Assembly (NCBI GenBank): GCA_016937015.1
Contig: JAFGWT010000327.1
Coordinates: 4,911 to 68,910 of the forward strand
Direction: 5' to 3'
Source of the DNA: Deltaproteobacteria bacterium
GTDB taxonomy: Bacteria > Myxococcota_A > Polyangia > JAAYKL01
Length of the DNA stretch: 64,000 nt
Numbering within the stretch: position 1 is the stretch's first letter; every line of letters starts with the position of its first letter. The position numbers and the translations under genes are program-made. The notes beneath the pieces are model-generated. The model saw only the letters and a program-made list of their open reading frames with translations, was not told where the DNA came from and ran no database searches. Positions 1,679-9,975 of the stretch are shown one piece after another.

Positions 1679-3198
1679 CTAAAACAATAATCGGAGCACA
1701 CCGGCAGTTCCACCAGCATCGACAGCAGCACACCCACATCCATCCTGCGCACTGCTGTTTGCACCCGTAATCTCTGCATCCACTGCCAGGTCCGTATCCT
1801 GCTCCGGTTCCACCGCAGCCTCGTGCCATTCGTATGCCCCCACATCAACGCCACTGCCCTGCGGTCTCAAAATGCGATCCAAATCCAGTTCCGGCGCGTA
1901 TTCACTCAGACCGGCATCAACGGCTGCACTTTGTGGCAGTATATGAAAATCGAATCCGGACATATCCACAAACAGCGCAGATGGGTCATCTATAATTATG
2001 TTTCCCAAATTTTCGAGCGTATCCACGCCACTTATGGAAGTGGCAAGGTTGTTGGCAACGACGCAATTTTCTGGCGGTGTGCCGTCCTTGTGGTCGGCAA
2101 TCATAATCCACGGTGGCCCAGGTTCTTCAGCATTGGGATCAAGTACCGTATTATTCACGATGCGGCAATTTCGAGCACCGTAGAGGGAGATGCCATGCCA
2201 GTGGTCGGTATAAATCACATTGTTCTCCACCACCCAGTCTTCGAACATACCGTCAAAACAGCCAATCCCCTGAAGCGTCCCCCGAAAAGGCTGATTGGGA
2301 TCCTCGTAATTAATAATGGTATTGCCCCTTAACACGATTCCGCGCACCGTTCCGGTTCCAACGCCGTCATCCCCCACAGACCAGGACTGAAATCCGTCAT
2401 CATGGTTCTCATTTACGTCATAACAGTTTTTAACCGTGTTATACGCAAACAGGGTGTAATCCCCAAGGCCCCGCATCCCGTCTCCGGCAAAATTTTCGAC
2501 TGTATTGCCAACCACCGTTGAATGCGTCGCCCCAACACTGATTCCAAAATTAACGTTTCTCAGATAATTGCCAATTATGGTGATTCGAGTGCCATCCGCA
2601 TTGATGCCATTGGCAGGCAGGGTGTTCCAGTCATCAAGCGTCCAGCTGGACGCGTCATCAACGGACTGCAACCTGCAGCTTTCAATCACGATGTCATGCA
2701 CTGGTCCCTGCCAGTCGTGAGAATCAATATCAACCATGGTCGTCGGATCATACGATTCACCAAATGCTGACTGATATTGAGACCGCGAATGGTCCAGTTG
2801 GCTGAAGCGCGAACAAGTACACTGGTGAAGCGCGCATCCGCACCGGCAACGGCCTGAATCGTGACCATCTCATGGTTATAGTAGCCGGTTAGATTCACTG
2901 CACCGTAGTCACCGGTCTGTAACCACAGGGTATCTCCCGCCTTAACAGGGGCGCCGCTGTTTTTAGAAATGAGCATGGCATCATCACCAGGTGGCAAAGC
3001 ATCCCACCCCTGCGACTCAATCAGGTTATCGTCAAGCACCTGTTGCAAAGACAACCACGGATTTGAAGCACTGCCATCTCCAGCTGCACTGCCGTTCACC
3101 GGATCCACATAAAAATCTGATGCCCATACCCTGCACGGCAGTATCAGAAAAAACGCTAAACACGTCGTCACAGGCCATTTCACTTGATATGATGTCAT
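1679..3198 (-). pseudogene. Secreted right-handed parallel beta-helix (pectin-lyase-like) protein split by a 1-nt frameshift near 2769 (ORFs 2686..3198 and 1679..2737)
   Basis: Signal peptide followed by FYVDPVNGSAAGDGSASNPW; beta-helix repeats; NHDDGFQ; C-terminal DFHILPQSAAVDAG...DVGAYE and GCGC. Adding one C at 2769 gives the continuous reading ISPAFGESYDPTTMVDID. Confidence 0.8.
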
Positions 3199-3347
3199 CT
3201 ACATCTCCTTAAAAATGAAGCATAATAAACACAGGCTTTATTCTAAAAGATTGCCGGGCAACATACAAACAGTCCTATTCGGAAACGGACAATCATCCCA
3301 ATGGCTGGTCATGGCAATGCTTTGGGCAGGCAGATTCGCAACGTAAC

Positions 3348-3960
3348 CTACTTTTTGTCGGGCACGGGTAATCCGTAATCTGTCTGATAGTTTTCGGTCT
3401 CGAACTCCGGTACGCCGTAGTCGGGTAACATCACATCGGTGGCGGTATCTGTGTCGGGCATGCCATAGGCAGGGACGTCTGTTTCTTCTTCAATTGGCAT
3501 ACCGTAATCCGCATCCGCATCGGTGTCGCTGTCAGAATAGCCCGTATCGACCGGCATGCCATATTCAATCGCGTATTCGGTATCAACTGGCATACCGTAA
3601 TCCGCATCGGTAACGCTGTCTGTATCACTGTCCGAATCCGAATCCGAATCAGAATCGGAATCGGTATCTGTGTCCGAATCTGAGTCCGTATCTGAGTCAG
3701 ATGCGCCAGTGTCGAAAGGCATTGCGTATTCGGGTGAAATCACGTCGGTGTCGGGCATACCGTAGGCAGGGGTATCCGTTTCTTCGATTGGCATCCCGTA
3801 ATCCGTATCCACTGGCATGCCGTAGTCCGCGTCAGAATCAGTGTCGCTATCGGTATCACTGTCAGCGTCACTATCCGCATCACTGTCCGAATCGGAATCA
3901 CTATCGGTATCCGCATCTGAGTACCCTGCACTATCCGTATCTGTTTCAGTGTCCCTGGGT
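3348..3960 (-). repeat. Coding repeat region: (D-S/T/A)n tracts interspersed with [DAE]YG[MVL]P motifs
   Basis: Translation shows DYGMP x4, AYGMP x2, EYGMP, DYGVP, DYGLP plus EYAMP and EYAI. GGCATACCGTA/GGCATGCCGTA-like units recur on the + strand. Confidence 0.95.
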
Positions 3961-5123
3961 GACGGCTCATCCACATCGTCACAGGCGCTCACGCCCGCGC
4001 CCAGCAACATGGCCAGAGTGACTGCGGCCGCCTGTTTCGAAAGATACTGCCCGGTTTCCTTTTGTTCATGCAGCGTGCGATAAACACACATGGGGTTCTC
4101 TACGCCATCCCCGGACGCCACCTTCTTCGCTGTACAGCCCCCTTTGCAGATTTCCGCCTTATCGCAGGTTCTGCAGAATCCACCCAATTCGTCGATAGTC
4201 CAGTTCCGGGTGTACGCAAACGCGCCATCCCGATGCCAGATCTCAGCCAGTGGCGTCTCCCGAATGTTTCCCTCCACAAACTCCTGACCACGGTCGTTGT
4301 AGCCGGCCATAATCGACAGACATCCCTTGATGTTGCCGTTCGACTCTATTCCGATAACGCTCTTTCCCGCGCCGCAACCCGTAAAATGTTTCCCGTGATT
4401 CGCTTTGCGCAACAGCTTTTCGTTCGGTCCAAAATACCCAACAGAATCAGACGGGTGAACGCGAATCGGGCTTTTGCGAATGAGTTTTCCCAGCGTCTTT
4501 TCAACGCCAATCAACTGACCCGGCGACAGCAGCATATCCCTGTGATCACTCATGTTCCCCATGTCTGTCCCCAGCTGCACCTGCCACGCATACGCGCCCT
4601 TGTCGACAATCAACTGATGAAGCGATTCCAACTCGCGCAGGTTTCTGGTGTTCAGATGTGTCAGCACAGCAAAAGGCATCCGCTCTTCCCGACACGTGTC
4701 CATGGCGGTCATCAATTGCCGAAAATGTCCAATTCTGCCGCGAATAAAATCATGGGTTTGGGCTTCGCCGCCGTCGAGACTCAACCCAATTCCAGATAAC
4801 TGCATCTTTTTTGCCAGTCGAATCGCGTCGCGGTCAAGAGAGACAGCATTGGTAATCATTCCGGCGCGAATTCCCACAGAAGTCGCCGCGTGAATAATAT
4901 CCGGCCAGTCTTCCCGGCACATGGGCTCTCCCCCCGAAATCGAAATCCACTCCATTCCCAGTTTTTTTAAGTCCGAAAACATCGTGCGGATTTCATCGAT
5001 ACCTAACTCATCCGCCCGTGCTTTTCCCGCCCGTGAACCGCAGTGCCTGCAACGGAGATTGCATTTTAACGTTGCCTCAAACACGCCCCGTCGGGGTATG
5101 AATTCAGATCTCTGCATCGCCAT
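3348..5123 (-). CDS. Radical SAM/SPASM peptide maturase (splicease-like) fused to a lipobox and an acidic YGxP-repeat tail
   Basis: FEATLKCNLRCRHCGSRAG (CxxxCxxC), SGGEP, SPASM CGAGKSVIGIESNGNIKGCLS...CRTCDKAEICKGGC...NPMC. Then AAAVTLAMLLGAGVSAC and about 210 aa of D/S/T-rich sequence with nine YGxP motifs. AAAGGA RBS upstream. Confidence 0.9.
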   Translation of the reverse strand: MAMQRSEFIPRRGVFEATLKCNLRCRHCGSRAGKARADELGIDEIRTMFSDLKKLGMEWISISGGEPMCREDWPDIIHAATSVGIRAGMITNAVSLDRDAIRLAKKMQLSGIGLSLDGGEAQTHDFIRGRIGHFRQLMTAMDTCREERMPFAVLTHLNTRNLRELESLHQLIVDKGAYAWQVQLGTDMGNMSDHRDMLLSPGQLIGVEKTLGKLIRKSPIRVHPSDSVGYFGPNEKLLRKANHGKHFTGCGAGKSVIGIESNGNIKGCLSIMAGYNDRGQEFVEGNIRETPLAEIWHRDGAFAYTRNWTIDELGGFCRTCDKAEICKGGCTAKKVASGDGVENPMCVYRTLHEQKETGQYLSKQAAAVTLAMLLGAGVSACDDVDEPSPRDTETDTDSAGYSDADTDSDSDSDSDADSDADSDTDSDTDSDADYGMPVDTDYGMPIEETDTPAYGMPDTDVISPEYAMPFDTGASDSDTDSDSDTDTDSDSDSDSDSDSDTDSVTDADYGMPVDTEYAIEYGMPVDTGYSDSDTDADADYGMPIEEETDVPAYGMPDTDTATDVMLPDYGVPEFETENYQTDYGLPVPDKK

Positions 5124-5201
5124 GGCTCATCCTTTCGTTTAATTGAATAAATTAATGAATGTCCAATTTATAACACATACCAATAAAAAAATGGGAACTT
5201 T

Positions 5202-7145
5202 TCAGTTTTCGTTTTGCATATCCACATCGCCAAGGGTAGCAATCAAATTTCTTAGGCGACTTTTGCCAAATGGCTTGTGCCAGATACTCATAAGGTCAGC
5301 AGCGGCTGCGCTGTTTTCAGCCTCCCGGTCTCCGTGATTGGTCAAAAGAACAACACGGGAAGGTGCGGATACCAGACAGGCATCTTTCAAAAAATTAACA
5401 CCATTCGTACCCGGCAACCGATAATCGGCAATTACCAAATCAAACGGAATCACCTCAGCAGTGAGCGCCTCCAACGCATGGGAAGGATCGAGCTGAATAC
5501 TCACGTCAAAACCCAATTCCCGAAGCATTCTCGACATCATTGTCCCCGAACTGATATCGCCAGCCACCAGAAGGATTCGTTGAATCGGCCGACCATGCCC
5601 TTCAGCCGGCTTCCACGGCGGAATTGTGTTTTCATCTGGAACCGGAAACAACGCAGTAATGCATGTCCCTTTGCCCGGTTCACTGTCCACGAGCAGATTG
5701 CCCCCATGCTCCTTCATAATACCAAAAACGACCGACAATCCCATACCGCTTCCTTTTCCCACTTCCCGGGTGGTAAAAAACGGATCGAACATTTGCTGTA
5801 TTATTCTCGCGTCCATCCCACATCCTTCATCCTCAATCGTGATCGCAACATATTTTCCCGGGGTGACGGCACCAAGACGGCCAGAGATCCCATCTCCCAA
5901 CTGCTGGGCCTCACAAAAGACCCGAAGCGTGCCTCTTTCATCCATGGCATGCACGCCGTTGGTGCAGAGGTTCATCATCAATTCGTGAATCTGAATAGGA
6001 TCAGCAACAATCGATGGTACATCTCGGCCGATTCGCGTTTCAATCGCAATCGTTGATGGAAATGCCGCGCGAAGCAACACGACTACCTCTCGTACTATCA
6101 GTTGAGGTGCAATTTCGGTAAGTGCCTGCTTCTGCTGGCGGGTGAAGGACAGTATCTGATTAATCAGCTGCTTTGCCCGCTCAGTGGATACCAGTATCTG
6201 TTGAATATATTGCCCGCTCAACGATTCGGGCGCCCATTCGTCGGCAAGCAAATCGGCATATCCCATAATCGCACCAAGAATATTGTTGAAATCATGGGCG
6301 ATACCGCCGGATAAATATCCGAGTGCTTCCATTTTCTCAGCCTGATGCAGCTGCTTTTCCTTGAGTATATCCTCGGTGATATCCTTTTTAACTGCGACAT
6401 AATTCACGATTGTCCCGTCAGTCCCCATCACCGGAGAAATCACTGCCCGTTCCGTGTATCGAGCACCATTTTTTCGCTGGTTTTCAAAAACGCCGCGCCA
6501 TGTCCGCCCGGAAGATATTGTTTCCCACATCTCTTTGTAAAATGATTCATCGTGAACGCCACTTTGCAGGACCCGCGGATTCTCCCCCATCACATCTTCC
6601 CGGCGATATCCGGTTACGTTTTCGAATGCGGGATTGACATAGACAATTTTGGCGTGCACATCGGTGATAACAACAACCTCCGCCGCCTGTTCCATGGCCA
6701 TTGACAACCGCACAAGGGCCTGTTCCGATTGCTTGCGTTCTGTAACATCTTCAAAAATTGTGGCGAACAGGCCGGGCGCTGGCTGATAGGCGGTAACCTC
6801 AAAGTATTTGCCCAACTCCTTTGAATAATTGGTAATGGTCGTTGATTCGCCAGTCAAAGCGACTTTGCCATAGGTTTCGATCCAGTACGGTTCTGTATCC
6901 GGCAGCACATCAAGCACTCTTTTGCCAACAATACTTCGATTCAAACCAGTCAGGCGCTCAAATGAAGGACTTATATCAAGAAAGCGATAATCGATCGGTG
7001 CACCGGTTCCATCGCAGATGATTTCATGAATGGCAAAGCCGTTGCGCATGGTTTCAAACAGTCGGTAATATACACCATCCAGTTTTTGCTGAACCGTCAC
7101 ATCGGAAGGTAAGTTTGATGGCTGCGGAGTTTTCATGATGCGCAA
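5202..7145 (-). CDS. PAS-PAS hybrid sensor histidine kinase with C-terminal receiver
   Basis: Two PAS domains, H-box GGIAHDFNNIL, N-box NLCTNG, FDPFFTT..GKGSGMGL, receiver DLVIADYRLPG...KPF. Confidence 0.93.
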   Translation of the reverse strand: MRIMKTPQPSNLPSDVTVQQKLDGVYYRLFETMRNGFAIHEIICDGTGAPIDYRFLDISPSFERLTGLNRSIVGKRVLDVLPDTEPYWIETYGKVALTGESTTITNYSKELGKYFEVTAYQPAPGLFATIFEDVTERKQSEQALVRLSMAMEQAAEVVVITDVHAKIVYVNPAFENVTGYRREDVMGENPRVLQSGVHDESFYKEMWETISSGRTWRGVFENQRKNGARYTERAVISPVMGTDGTIVNYVAVKKDITEDILKEKQLHQAEKMEALGYLSGGIAHDFNNILGAIMGYADLLADEWAPESLSGQYIQQILVSTERAKQLINQILSFTRQQKQALTEIAPQLIVREVVVLLRAAFPSTIAIETRIGRDVPSIVADPIQIHELMMNLCTNGVHAMDERGTLRVFCEAQQLGDGISGRLGAVTPGKYVAITIEDEGCGMDARIIQQMFDPFFTTREVGKGSGMGLSVVFGIMKEHGGNLLVDSEPGKGTCITALFPVPDENTIPPWKPAEGHGRPIQRILLVAGDISSGTMMSRMLRELGFDVSIQLDPSHALEALTAEVIPFDLVIADYRLPGTNGVNFLKDACLVSAPSRVVLLTNHGDREAENSAAAADLMSIWHKPFGKSRLRNLIATLGDVDMQNEN

Positions 7146-7296: not shown

Positions 7297-9975
7297 TCAA
7301 TCTGATGCGCCGATATTGCCGTATACAAGCCCCCTGCCGGCAGTGCTCATGTACACCCGGCCGAACACATTCGTATCCCCCTGCACAAACTTCCCGTTGC
7401 CTGGGCCACCGTATTGATGCGCGTCGTCATTCATGCGCGCCCAGGATTCACCTTTGTCGATGGAATAATATACGCCAAGCGGATTGTCAGTCGCACCGGC
7501 CACGCCCCAGATGAAGAGCGTTTCGTAATCGGCGCCATCAGCCGCTTTGCCAATGCCCACCGCATGCGCGGAGTACACCGACGCAAAGCGCACCCATGTC
7601 TCGCCGCCATCATCTGAAAATGCCAGTCCGTTTGTACTGAAACGGCCATTCTCCGCCCAGCTTTGCGCCTGATCCAAAGGCGCCCAAATATGCCCTTCCC
7701 TGCCTGGTACGGTTCGAATCAGACCGTTACTGGATTGCCACAATCCCTCGGCATCGTTTTGCACAGCCCCAACCGTCTCAAACGAAACCCCTTTGTCCGA
7801 CGATTTTTTTAAATTTCCCTGCTGGTCCAGCAGATAAAACACATCCGCATTCACCGGGTCACAGACAATTCGCGCATATTGAGACTGCCCATCCATCCCG
7901 GTTACGGTTGTCCAGTTAGCTCCCATATCATCGGAGCGATATACCACGTTGGCATTTTCGGGGCGATGCAGCAATACCTCACCGTCCGCTGACAGCACCA
8001 CCAACCCATGAGTGCCCATGGGTTCCGGCAGCGCCGTCCAGGAGGCGGCGTTGTCATCAGAAAAATACATCACATCACTCTCAATTCCTGTGCCAGTGGA
8101 GTAATCAGTTACATGACCGGTACGTAAAAATGCGCCCGTGAGCGGCGCGTATCCCAGCGAATGGGTGGTGCCGATTTCCGGGATGTGGACCGGGGCCGAT
8201 TCGCCGATATTGGTATATACCGCGCCATCATAGTCGCCAATCGCAGTGACCAGAGGGCCACCGGGGATGCTGACGATATCAAGTGGCACCGTTTCTTCAA
8301 TTCCTCTGGATTCAAACCGCCACACCGGCAGCGCGTCTTCGAGGTTGTCAGTATGAAAAACCCCATTTCCGGAAACCACCCATGCCTCGTTGGTATCAAA
8401 CGGATTAAATGCGACATCACCTGCCCAATGAATGGCGTGACCGCTTATCCATGCATTTCCATTGGGATCCGCATTGGCATTGTCCGGATCATCAGGCTCC
8501 ATATATGAAAATCCGGTGGTCCAGGTTTCTCCTCCGTCCGCAGTTACATAAATACGATCGCCCCACCCTTCTGCGCCATCCGCATAACGCGTCTGACCAC
8601 CATAATAATTGAGTGTGGTAACCACGATATGGTTTGTGTCTTTGGGATCCACACTGACACCGCCGAATCCATGAGATGTTCCCTGACCGCCGTTGCCCAT
8701 TAACTCAGACCCGTCATCAGACATGGGTGTTAGATTCGTCCATGAATCGGACGCAATATCATAACGGTAAAACGAACCGGTGTTGATACCATGGGGACCA
8801 GGGGCATTATTGTATGTAATATAGAGGCTGCCTTCAGCCAAAACCGCGCGGTTTGGCATCTGACCGGTTGGGCCCCCGTTGATGGTATCGAACGACGCAC
8901 CGCCATCTGTACTGACATACAGATTATCACCAATCTGAGATACGCCCATATACAGCGTATCGGTGCCTCCATCAGCAGTCAGACCGCCACTTTCGTCGAA
9001 AAACACAAAACTGATGCCATTGGTATTGACTAAATCGGCGCCGGAACTGGCACCAATGTCACTGACTTTTCGCCACGATTTTCCGGCGTCTTCGCTTTTA
9101 AACAGCCCCGCTGAGCGACTCCCGCAAAACACGATATCGGAATTATTGGGGTCCACTGCCAGCTTCTCTCCGGTCTGGCGCCCCATTCCATTGCCATGAG
9201 CCCCCCACAGTTCAGTAACGTCCGTCACATCAAACGTTTCACCGTAATCGTCGGACCGGAGAATGGCTGTTTTTCCGTCACTGAAATACGACGTGCCGGC
9301 GAGTATATACAGGCGTCCAGGATTGGACGGATCGAGCGCGAAACTCTCAGTGCCATACAGCCCCACATCATCCTGTGAAATCCAGTCCATGAGAGGTATC
9401 CAAACCCCATGTGTATCATTCCATCGATAAACGCCCCCCACGTCTGTGCGGGCATACACGAGTCCTTCCACATCTTTCGACGGCAGCAACCCCGCCACAA
9501 AACCGCCCCCATCAAAGCGAACATTTCCCCAGCCATCGGTATCCCCGGGCTCAATATCCACCGGCCCTGTATCGGTATCCGAGTCCGTATCGCTATCCGC
9601 ATCCGAATCACTGTCTGTATCCGTATCACTATCCGAATCAGAGTCAGAATCGCCATCTGTGTCACTGTCTGTATCTGTATCGGAATCACTGTCTGAGTCG
9701 CTGTCGGTGTCCGAATCACTGTCACTATCCGCGTCAGAATCGGCATCCGAATCCGAATCCCCATCGCCATCTCCATGCGAAGTCCCATCACTGTCCGAAT
9801 CGGAATCCGAGTCCGAGTCCGAATCAGAATCAGAATCAGAATCGGCATCGCCACCAATATCCCCATCAGTTGTGTCTTTGGCTTTAGATTCATCTGATGA
9901 GCAGCCGTTCAGCACGCTTAACGCCGGTATGAAACAAAGTACCCCAATCAGTATTTTCCAGTTTTTTGCAGTCAT
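7297..9975 (-). CDS. GH74 xyloglucanase-like double beta-propeller lipoprotein with N-terminal Asp-Ser linker
   Basis: Lipobox LNGC; [66 protein letters not shown]; several SxDxGxTW Asp-boxes. Confidence 0.9.
9569..9850. repeat. Hexanucleotide coding repeat encoding (D-S/T/A/G)n
   Basis: Runs such as GAATCAGAATCAGAATCA and TCCGAGTCCGAG; translates on the minus strand as DSDSDSDTD... Confidence 0.95.

Follow-up and report, generated by a model that had tools for sequence, protein, structure and literature searches.

Can a radical S-adenosylmethionine (SAM) enzyme carry its own substrate on the same polypeptide chain? This question is raised by an open reading frame (ORF) found in a stretch of 64,000 nucleotides from a Deltaproteobacteria bacterium of the Polyangia (assembly GCA_016937015.1, contig JAFGWT010000327.1, positions 4,911 to 68,910), referred to here as the window. 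The ORF lies at window positions 3348-5123 on the (-) strand, starts with ATG, stops with TAG and counts 591 codons in one frame, which encode a radical SAM/SPASM enzyme, an internal segment resembling a signal peptide with its lipobox, and an acidic tail of repeated Tyr-Gly (YG) sites. A preliminary description of this DNA had noticed the radical SAM/SPASM motifs and nine X-Y-G-x-P motifs in one stop-free frame, and had proposed that an enzyme similar to the spliceases modifies its own tail. The ORF, the cysteine positions and the Pfam scores agree with the enzyme and the YG tail of that layout, in which, however, the internal lipoprotein-type signal had been overlooked. On balance, we judge it somewhat probable that the protein is a natural fusion of an enzyme of the splicease kind with its substrate, which would undergo modification in the cytoplasm ahead of its export.

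The enzyme domain and its nearest families

The catalytic domain covers residues 1-350 (4074..5123; this and all following ORF features are on the (-) strand) and is recognised by Pfam, NCBIfam and AlphaFold2. The Pfam model Radical_SAM (PF04055) matches residues 18-171 with 74.2 bits against a cut-off of 29.5, which places the protein in the superfamily, defined by the cluster-binding CxxxCxxC motif within a partial TIM-barrel fold, and SPASM (PF13186) matches residues 250-321 with 33.7 bits against a cut-off of 21.5, which makes it a member of that family as well. The ligands of the SAM-binding 4Fe-4S cluster, C21-x3-C25-x2-C28 (5040..5063), are invariant columns in two alignments, A1 and A2. 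The SPASM region (residues 250-346; 4086..4376) contains seven cysteines (C250, C268, C317, C320, C326, C330 and C346) arranged as C-x12-G-x4-C ... C-x2-C-x5-C-x3-C ... C, all of which are invariant in A2; such a seven-cysteine pattern is that of two auxiliary 4Fe-4S clusters. With the CxxxCxxC motif starting as early as residue 21, the N-terminus is too short to hold a recognition element (RRE) domain of the kind named after the ribosomally synthesised peptides with post-translational modifications (RiPPs).

The best match among the 71 NCBIfam families hit was TIGR04103, nif11-class peptide radical SAM maturase 3 (244 bits, residues 12-356), followed by TIGR03913, GDL motif peptide-associated radical SAM/SPASM maturase (238.9 bits). 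We take IPR026482 to be equated with TIGR04103 or built on it. About 100 bits lower came heme b synthase (145 bits), NirJ2 (138), the mycofactocin maturase (125) and TIGR04133 (124.1). Nine relatives, both fused and unfused, gave an identical ranking, with 230-325 bits. PlpX, the founding splicease, is assigned to IPR026482 in the available part of PMC11002830. As judged by these scores, the enzyme part is nearest to the splicease families and not to the heme or sulfatase maturases. Clustering with the latter had been named in the preliminary description as an outcome that would speak against its proposal; it was not seen in the family scores, and the splicease families outscore heme b synthase by 244 to 145 bits.

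No splicease was found by sequence search of the PDB, where the best match was SkfB (E 1.3e-14), and the solved folds nearest to the model of the domain were those of SkfB, SuiB, PqqE and anSME. In the full-length AlphaFold2 model, which was built on a 108-row alignment, the predicted local distance difference test (pLDDT) exceeds 90 over approximately residues 10-360, and helices are predicted at residues 347-357 and 359-376.

The fusion in homologues and in independent assemblies

A search with residues 1-365 retrieved 1,311 proteins at E <= 0.001, the best 120 of which were analysed together with the query (121 sequences). At least 80 residues follow the last SPASM motif in 76 of the 121. 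Five of these 76 are two-domain proteins, and all of the remaining 71 long-tailed homologues contain a hydrophobic segment followed by Cys, which in the window protein is represented by A365-A380 and C381 (V-S-A-C; 3981..4031). The five two-domain proteins (P0072, P0077, P0079, P0081 and P0097; 703-732 residues), 31-34% identical to the query, consist of two tandem halves that resemble radical SAM/SPASM domains. The one-gene system of the preliminary description holds for this locus, but the gene is not a singleton, its architecture being that of a large family.

A more distant search, covering 1.84 billion cluster representatives (50% identity), gave 31,365 matches at E <= 1e-3, 384 of them at E <= 1e-30. 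Complete domains were present in 140 of the best 150 representatives; a tail of at least 60 residues follows in 76 of the 140. The hydrophobic-Cys element is found in 39 of the 76 tailed representatives, and of these 31 have at least one YG and 25 at least two; other radical SAM proteins with YG tails, for which the preliminary description had suggested a search, do exist. Tails of other kinds are seen in the remaining 37, and many of these, by eye, resemble tetratricopeptide repeats (TPR). In P0146, P0161, P0168, P0182, P0189, P0238 and others, about 180 residues of TPR-like helical repeats stand where the membrane segment and the YG tail would be. A number of distant fused forms (L068, L074, L076, P0133, P0141, P0152, P0165, P0199 and others) contain [D/E]-Y-G-[V/I]-x-P repeats, and many end in a recurrent Cys-rich C-C-x-C-[D/E]-Y-G-x-P-P-P-x-C-C motif, which hints that a site at the C-terminus is conserved and has disulfides or metal ligands on its two sides.

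The host genome itself contains a paralogue (C137:2001-3656) of 551 residues, 56% identical to the window protein and identical in layout, with Y-G-I-Q-x-P-D repeats. Orthologues of both paralogues are present in related metagenome-assembled genomes (MAGs), L001 and L005 in one genome and L002 and L016 in another, so that each enzyme seems to keep company with its own flavour of site. A third radical SAM/SPASM gene of the host (C289:4152-5168), 26% identical and with 128 bits to TIGR04103, has a hydrophobic end and no YG sites.

The reading frame is also supported by contigs of other sequencing runs. A contig of run X1, possibly the source sample, covers 3348-4804 with 0 differences; contigs of run X2 cover 3939-4122 and 4125-4400, also with 0 differences; and a contig of run X3, from another study, covers 3973-4236 with one synonymous change at 4149 (ATC to ATA, Ile325). 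No insertions or deletions across the junction (nucleotides 3981-4088) are listed in these three runs of two studies. The stop or frameshift between enzyme and tail, by which the proposal of a fusion could have fallen, was not seen. We are nearly certain that the fusion is real.

The tail and its Tyr-Gly sites

The tail (residues 382-591; 3351..3980) consists of Asp-Ser/Thr linker runs and two clusters of Y-G-x-P sites, and its composition and pLDDT predict that it is disordered. In fact, the pLDDT is below 50 everywhere except at residues 454-465, a segment that starts at the Tyr of A-Y454-G. Among the 210 residues after C381 there are 58 D, 25 S, 25 T, 17 P, 14 Y, 13 E, 12 G, 9 M, 2 K and 1 R. 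All nine YG pairs are part of a Y-G-x-P motif. D-Y434-G, D-Y442-G and A-Y454-G form, together with E-Y466-A, the first cluster (residues 433-469; 3717..3827), and Y509, Y521, Y540, Y553, Y569 and Y583 form, together with Y517-A, the second (residues 508-586; 3366..3602), the last site of which is 8 residues from the C-terminus. The residue preceding the site Tyr is Asp in six cases out of nine, Ala in two and Glu in one. When the tail was shuffled 100,000 times, nine YG pairs were never reached and the maximum was six. X-Y-G sites linked to a splicease homologue, by which spliceotides are recognised, are present here nine times in one polypeptide.

The same preference was observed across the 71 fused homologues, where Gly follows 210 of the 336 tail tyrosines (62%), as compared to 8.8% Gly among all tail residues. 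The position +2 is M, I, V, F or L in 257 of the 336 cases and the position +3 is Pro in 195. A Y-x(2-3)-P motif is found within the last 16 residues in 47 of the 71 homologues, 28 times as YG. The tails of orthologues with 81-83% identity in the domain have 131-162 residues and 3-8 YG pairs, and in the alignments, read by eye, the Y-G-x-P sites are aligned blocks between variable linkers. From this pattern of conservation we conclude that the Y-G-x-P motif is under selection. Splice tags derived from PlpA read ...P-L-Y-G-L-P-I (PMC10533398, the part containing Table 1), and the match of Y-G-hydrophobic-P with this tag was counted in favour of the tail being a substrate.

When the tail was compared with NCBIfam, it matched only Ser-Asp repeat regions (SdrC/D, ClfA/B), a result driven by composition, and it gave no match to TIGR04134 at E <= 0.1. 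The TIGR04133/TIGR04134 families are a gene pair of Bacteroidetes encoding a radical SAM enzyme and a lipoprotein, and a kinship with them had been mentioned in the preliminary description; it was not borne out for the tail, nor for the enzyme, which reaches 124.1 bits against a TIGR04133 cut-off of 425. Two matches were found in Pfam, both under threshold. A search for stand-alone tails (residues 360-591 against proteins of 30-324 residues), which is of low sensitivity, gave 58 weak matches (E 2.7e-7 to 1e-3); these are acidic low-complexity linkers, and the only one in which at least two YG are followed by a hydrophobic residue looks unrelated. By regular expression, no other frame of the host genome, which is 92% complete, has three or more Y-G-x-P motifs, and the only other YG-repeat frame known there is that of the fused paralogue.

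The putative binding of the tail to the enzyme was addressed by predicting the complex of residues 1-360, SAM and three 4Fe-4S clusters with the tail segment 428-472, in three runs and with three controls. The score was 0.52 (runs 0.52, 0.43 and 0.53), as compared to 0.07 for the best control, the runs agreed in at least 79% of the contacts, and the pLDDT of the partner was at least 38. In the calibration, 58 of 80 solved complexes and 2 of 110 mismatched pairs attained this mark, but only 7 of those 80 solved complexes attained it with a score of 0.60 or under, as did both passing mismatches. The prediction weakly suggests that the enzyme domain binds residues 428-472.

An internal signal of lipoprotein type

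Between the enzyme and the tail, a linker helix (residues 347-364; 4032..4085) carries K363 near its end and is predicted, from AlphaFold2 and from the basic residues of the homologues, to lie on the cytoplasmic side of a membrane segment. The segment that follows is Ala-rich and moderately hydrophobic (mean Kyte-Doolittle value 1.94 over 15 residues). Bacterial lipoboxes have the consensus [LVI][ASTVI][GAS]C. V-S-A-C381 ends the hydrophobic run as a lipobox does, and K363 ahead of it completes the layout of a lipoprotein signal, placed at residue 365 of 591; by eye, basic residues precede the hydrophobic segment also in the homologues.

The host genome is a MAG of 6.43 Mb in 564 contigs, 92% complete and with 4% contamination. 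All its frames were scanned for an Asp/Ser/Thr-rich 40-mer preceded by a hydrophobic run with Cys at its end, and offsets were counted from the previous stop. Of the 129 frames that matched, 127 have the element at a lipoprotein-like N-terminus, and only the two radical SAM fusions have it in a clearly internal position, at offsets 365 and 371 (list read by eye). The other 127 begin with Met and basic residues, followed by a hydrophobic run, [G/A/S]-C and then an S-D-S-D-T-D-like stretch, and one of them, on contig C483, ends its signal in the identical G-V-S-A-C. With about 127 lipoprotein frames carrying a matching Asp-Ser/Thr linker, the tail appears to be built like the mature lipoproteins of this organism. 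Two LspA genes are present in the genome. Long (Asp-Ser/Thr)n runs placed right behind the lipobox Cys are a striking genome-wide habit, found in about 127 frames; a BNR/sortilin-type lipoprotein of the window (7297-9975, (-)) has more than 100 residues of (Asp-Ser/Thr)n.

Unfused relatives and the distribution of the fusion

The best 80 of 496 confirmed relatives, mostly from MAGs labelled Polyangia, Myxococcota or 'Deltaproteobacteria', were analysed at the level of their loci. Twenty loci are fused and 60 unfused, and a separate YG-bearing ORF lies beside the radical SAM gene in 29 of the 60. In 20 of these 29 the neighbour is a Cys-rich acidic repeat protein, of which the example in L021 matches NF033662 (105 bits against a cut-off of 41); in L040, a YG-bearing protein of 101 residues is encoded directly downstream of the radical SAM gene. 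In L021, L032, L037, L050 and 16 others, an X-Y-G/A-[IV]-P site comes after each NF033662-type repeat (the NF033662 model was tested on L021 only). The match would link this acidic double-disulfide repeat family to a radical SAM partner. Five of the 29 loci have a YG neighbour of a second type. The Methanosarcinales loci L062, L069 and L072 have a conserved ORF of 44 residues with two L-Y-G-V motifs, 0.4-0.8 kb from the enzyme gene, and by their sequences look like a minimal splicease-like pair; their enzymes are 39% identical to the window enzyme.

The presence of separate YG-repeat genes beside the unfused relatives suggests that the fused parts work together (the Rosetta-stone argument). 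In all seven myxobacterial-type precursors that were read, the chain begins with an extension, continues with a hydrophobic run that terminates in Cys, and only then enters the repeats. Going by this layout, the putative export element of the split precursors is the same as that of the fusions, and a leader stands in the place of the enzyme.

In a tree of 101 domain rows, the window protein falls into well-supported sets made up of fused proteins only, and the fused state, which is spread over several groups, changes at least three times. This tree was made by a quick search, is unrooted, has many open forks, leaves out L033 and includes no characterised splicease. A first tree of 76 rows, equally quick and unrooted, and likewise with no characterised splicease, left out L033, L059, L068, L074, L076 and L077. 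A single origin of the fusion, proposed on the basis of the first tree, was withdrawn in view of the several fused groups and at least three changes of the second. In the first tree, five of the six rows with no YG group together.

A proposed pathway and its alternatives

We infer the following pathway from these observations. Residues 1-350 would be a cytoplasmic enzyme and the disordered acidic tail of 210 residues its substrate, with nine [D/A/E]-Y-G-[M/V/L]-P sites. As radical SAM reactions require the cytoplasm, modification of the tail would have to precede export and could take place either in cis or between neighbouring molecules; the likeliest reaction would be the excision of a tyramine equivalent, leaving an alpha-keto-beta-amino amide. 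The internal signal would then insert with its N-terminal side in and its C-terminal side out, and Sec would export the tail. Finally, C381 may be lipidated by Lgt, and signal peptidase II (LspA) may free an acidic lipoprotein of about 210 residues, the enzyme being left behind. The enzyme would stand in for the leader of a RiPP, and the ordinary lipoprotein machinery for a dedicated protease and transporter. A pathway of this kind would account for the lack of nearby genes for a leader, a Y protein, a protease or a transporter. The parts of this pathway are not equally secure: the tail is quite likely a substrate, given its motifs, the split relatives and the structure predictions, and likely exported, going by its signal; tyramine excision, proposed by analogy, has an even chance; and cleavage at C381, suggested by the lipobox, is plausible but somewhat doubtful. 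Taken as a whole, a single-polypeptide RiPP system in which the enzyme acts as leader, up to nine alpha-ketoamides are installed, and Sec export is followed by lipidation and release through Lgt and LspA is a tentative proposal, rather unlikely to hold in every part.

A number of findings weigh against the fusion being of the splicease kind, and they count for an alternative in which the relation of enzyme and substrate is real but the chemistry is another one at Tyr or its neighbour, such as cross-linking, epimerisation or hydroxylation. Although TIGR04103 and TIGR03913 rank first by about 100 bits, the scores stay below all curated cut-offs, 244 bits being about one third of the 725 of TIGR04103 and 238.9 comparing with 591.75 for TIGR03913; the enzyme is a relative of the splicease families and no member of any curated one. 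No YG is present in 22 of the 71 fused homologues, which have Y-D-[IV]-P(-P-W), Y-S-x-P, Y-A-x-P or no obvious site, so that either this clade can do without the Gly or its reaction is another one; Y-x-[hydrophobic]-P is what such homologues keep. In Rheinheimera, RcsX spliced M-Y-G and left D-Y-G of RcsA unmodified (available part of PMC11626197), and D-Y-G is the context of six of the nine tail sites. Moreover, the similarly folded SPASM enzymes SkfB, SuiB, PqqE and anSME run many reactions. On the other side, the nearest families are still TIGR04103, which we take to stand for the spliceases, and TIGR03913; Y-G-hydrophobic-P is the motif of the PlpA splice tag; and YG-rich neighbours, found here beside unfused relatives, are the signature used to mine spliceases (PMC10849128, in the part available). 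We consider a different chemistry unlikely, if a serious contender.

The tail might also be no substrate at all but a periplasmic spacer or binding region, for instance for cations, behind a hydrophobic segment that anchors the enzyme in the membrane, while the enzyme acts on another peptide or a small molecule. The Asp-Ser/Thr linkers of about 127 other frames fit this view, as do those fused homologues whose tails have no Tyr site, and co-translational targeting, expected of a strongly hydrophobic signal anchor, would keep the tail away from the active site. The moderately hydrophobic, Ala-rich segment is compatible with post-translational export but is no proof of it, 31 of the 60 unfused loci have no YG neighbour by the criteria used, and the complex prediction counts for little in favour of a substrate. 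Nevertheless, we regard a mere spacer as quite improbable: by regular expression, three or more Y-G-x-P motifs occur in no other frame of the 92%-complete genome, in which the only other YG-repeat frame known is that of the fused paralogue, these motifs are, by eye, aligned blocks in otherwise variable tails, YG-repeat genes adjoin unfused relatives, and the docking, weak as it is, points to binding. As for the last steps of the pathway, the signal is internal and not N-terminal as in a lipoprotein precursor. Homologues differ at position -3 of the putative lipobox, so that signal peptidase I may make the cut, or none may be made, and no case is known to us in which signal peptidase II cuts behind an N-terminal domain as long as 365 residues. 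In another reading the ORF gives two products, an internal start such as M345, 36 residues before C381, yielding a separate lipoprotein precursor that the full-length or soluble enzyme modifies in trans. This residue is Met in most sequences of the fused clade that were read and Tyr (N-P-Y-C) in the unfused clade, but it is L, F, V, Q or Y in several fused homologues, which leaves no conserved start, and by eye no Shine-Dalgarno-like sequence precedes M345, whereas AAGGA lies a few bases 5' of the real start; two products are very improbable. An artefact, that is, a lost stop, a frameshift or a chimeric assembly of a radical SAM gene with a downstream lipoprotein gene, is brought to mind by the 564 contigs and 4% estimated contamination of the MAG and by a neighbouring beta-helix gene that is split in the window and whole in a relative. 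It was rejected and retains a negligible probability, because the architecture recurs in 71 homologues from many independent assemblies, in the paralogue and in 39 of the best 150 representatives, and the contigs of two studies that span the junction are free of indels there.

If the fusion of a splicease-like enzyme with an exported substrate works as proposed, the product would be an envelope lipoprotein studded with electrophilic, protease-trapping groups and made by a single-use enzyme. A like logic, with a leader replacing the enzyme, would apply to the split systems of many Myxococcota, and general lipoprotein processing would become a route of leader removal for RiPPs.

The locus and its surroundings

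The genes adjoining the ORF encode a PAS histidine kinase/receiver protein, a beta-helix protein, an M20 peptidase, the BNR/sortilin-type lipoprotein and a fumarase. In agreement with the preliminary description, no precursor, RRE or transporter gene is found among them, and no Y-like gene adjoins the ORF either. In spliceotide systems an activating helix comes from a Y protein or from the leader of the precursor; in the AlphaFold2 model of the window protein, a confident helix (residues 347-376) follows the SPASM domain. The fumarase, the beta-helix protein and the M20 peptidase are conserved in synteny with the 82%-identical locus L002, whereas no gene neighbours are common to the window locus and the more distant fused loci. 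A scan of 3150-5350 for promoters and terminators gave nothing on the strand of the ORF.

The right-handed beta-helix protein, whose N-terminus resembles a signal peptide, is distributed over two overlapping frames of the window, 1679-2737 and 2686-3198 (-). A single frame of L002 (7811-9376) matches both pieces, with 70% and 56% identity, and the window copy is likely frameshifted or affected by an assembly error. The metatranscriptome run X4 aligned only to repetitive Asp-Ser coding stretches and is neutral as regards expression. Short contig pieces and 'joints' at 3527-3917 consist of Asp-Ser/Thr repeat DNA with sides of 20-34 letters, mostly from other genes or organisms, and were given no weight.

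Comparison with known systems

The literature on spliceases and spliceotides, in the parts available, contained no natural splicease-substrate fusion and no lipoprotein-type precursor, although such cases may be among the 939 systems predicted by the survey of Scott et al. 2022. The splicease-type survey scored the frequency of YG in ORFs adjoining radical SAM-SPASM genes (according to the accessible part of the review PMC10849128), and fused forms would be prone to escape a search that mines the ORFs beside the enzyme. Databases label the members of this family only as 'radical SAM protein'. The present results point to a large unexplored family, mainly of uncultured Myxococcota, and the internal signal suggests that its final products may be lipid-anchored envelope proteins, and not secreted peptides, freed by housekeeping machinery.

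In the characterised spliceotide systems, X and A are proteins of their own, in some cases joined by a Y protein, and the reaction excises a tyramine equivalent and leaves an alpha-keto-beta-amino amide (as described in the available part of PMC11414181), with a mass shift of -135.06 Da (PMC11626197, likewise in part). The window protein resembles PlpX/PlpY/PlpA, PcpXYA and RhaX/RhaA in having TIGR04103 and TIGR03913 as best matches, X-Y-G-hydrophobic-Pro sites, several sites per substrate and no N-terminal RRE. Unlike the PlpXYA-type systems with their separate genes, it joins enzyme and substrate in one polypeptide, with no Y protein and no leader of the Nif11 or nitrile hydratase-related (NHLP) type. 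ATP-binding transporters that contain a peptidase (PCATs) are reported for spliceotides (PMC10885120, in the part available), whereas the window protein has an internal lipoprotein-type signal; its X residue is mostly Asp and its scores are far below the cut-offs.

A one-component PlpXY fusion and a RhaX-A-leader fusion have been engineered (Richter et al. 2024, PMC11414181, from the part available). Like these, the window protein carries a substrate-side part on the C-terminus of a splicease-like enzyme and has a single component; the engineered fusions, however, are man-made and contain only the leader or the Y protein, with the core kept separate, whereas here the fusion is natural and the core itself would be joined. 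The accessible part of the same paper mentions natural RRE-maturase fusions and no natural enzyme-core fusion, and its one-component tools needed parts fused by hand. The residues made by spliceases are described as protease-inhibiting pharmacophores and as handles for protein labelling (available parts of PMC11414181, PMC11626197 and PMC10533398). A natural enzyme-substrate fusion would be a single-gene test bed for recognition in cis as opposed to trans, and would show that an enzyme is able to replace a leader.

Among other RiPP systems, the borosins come close in architecture. These proteins, of the OphMA type, are self-methylating, with a C-terminal core on the enzyme, and their reaction is autocatalytic and stoichiometric, the core being released afterwards. 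They share with the window protein an enzyme domain and its own C-terminal core in one polypeptide, but are SAM-dependent N-methyltransferases with no membrane segment or lipobox, whereas the window protein is a radical SAM enzyme with a different chemistry. The TIGR04133/TIGR04134 pair also combines a SPASM radical SAM enzyme with a putative lipoprotein part, but in two genes instead of one.

Also close are the unfused myxobacterial pairs of a radical SAM enzyme and an NF033662 protein, whose domains are 41-47% identical to that of the window and whose partners have X-Y-G/A-[IV]-P sites and a hydrophobic-Cys element behind an extension. They differ in having two genes, usually divergent, in the Cys-rich D-N-D-G-D-G repeats between the sites, and in a helical leader of 40-70 residues that replaces the enzyme. 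From these shared features we regard such pairs as a split version of one type of system, to which the fusion belongs as well.

As regards export, a parallel is given by the bufferins, which are modified in the cytoplasm by a multinuclear non-heme iron-dependent oxidative enzyme (MNIO) and then exported by Sec with removal of the signal peptide and with no dedicated transporter; in 2024, Sec-exported RiPP precursors were called rare, and the bufferins the first shown in a native producer (PMC11626156, in the part available). The window protein is like them in the proposed cytoplasmic modification followed by general Sec export, and unlike them in the enzyme, since bufferins depend on an MNIO, have an N-terminal signal of signal peptidase I type and come from a separate precursor. 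The window protein combines in one natural gene what these systems display one by one, namely the enzyme-core fusion of the borosins, the single component of the engineered spliceases and a Sec-type export of the putative RiPP.

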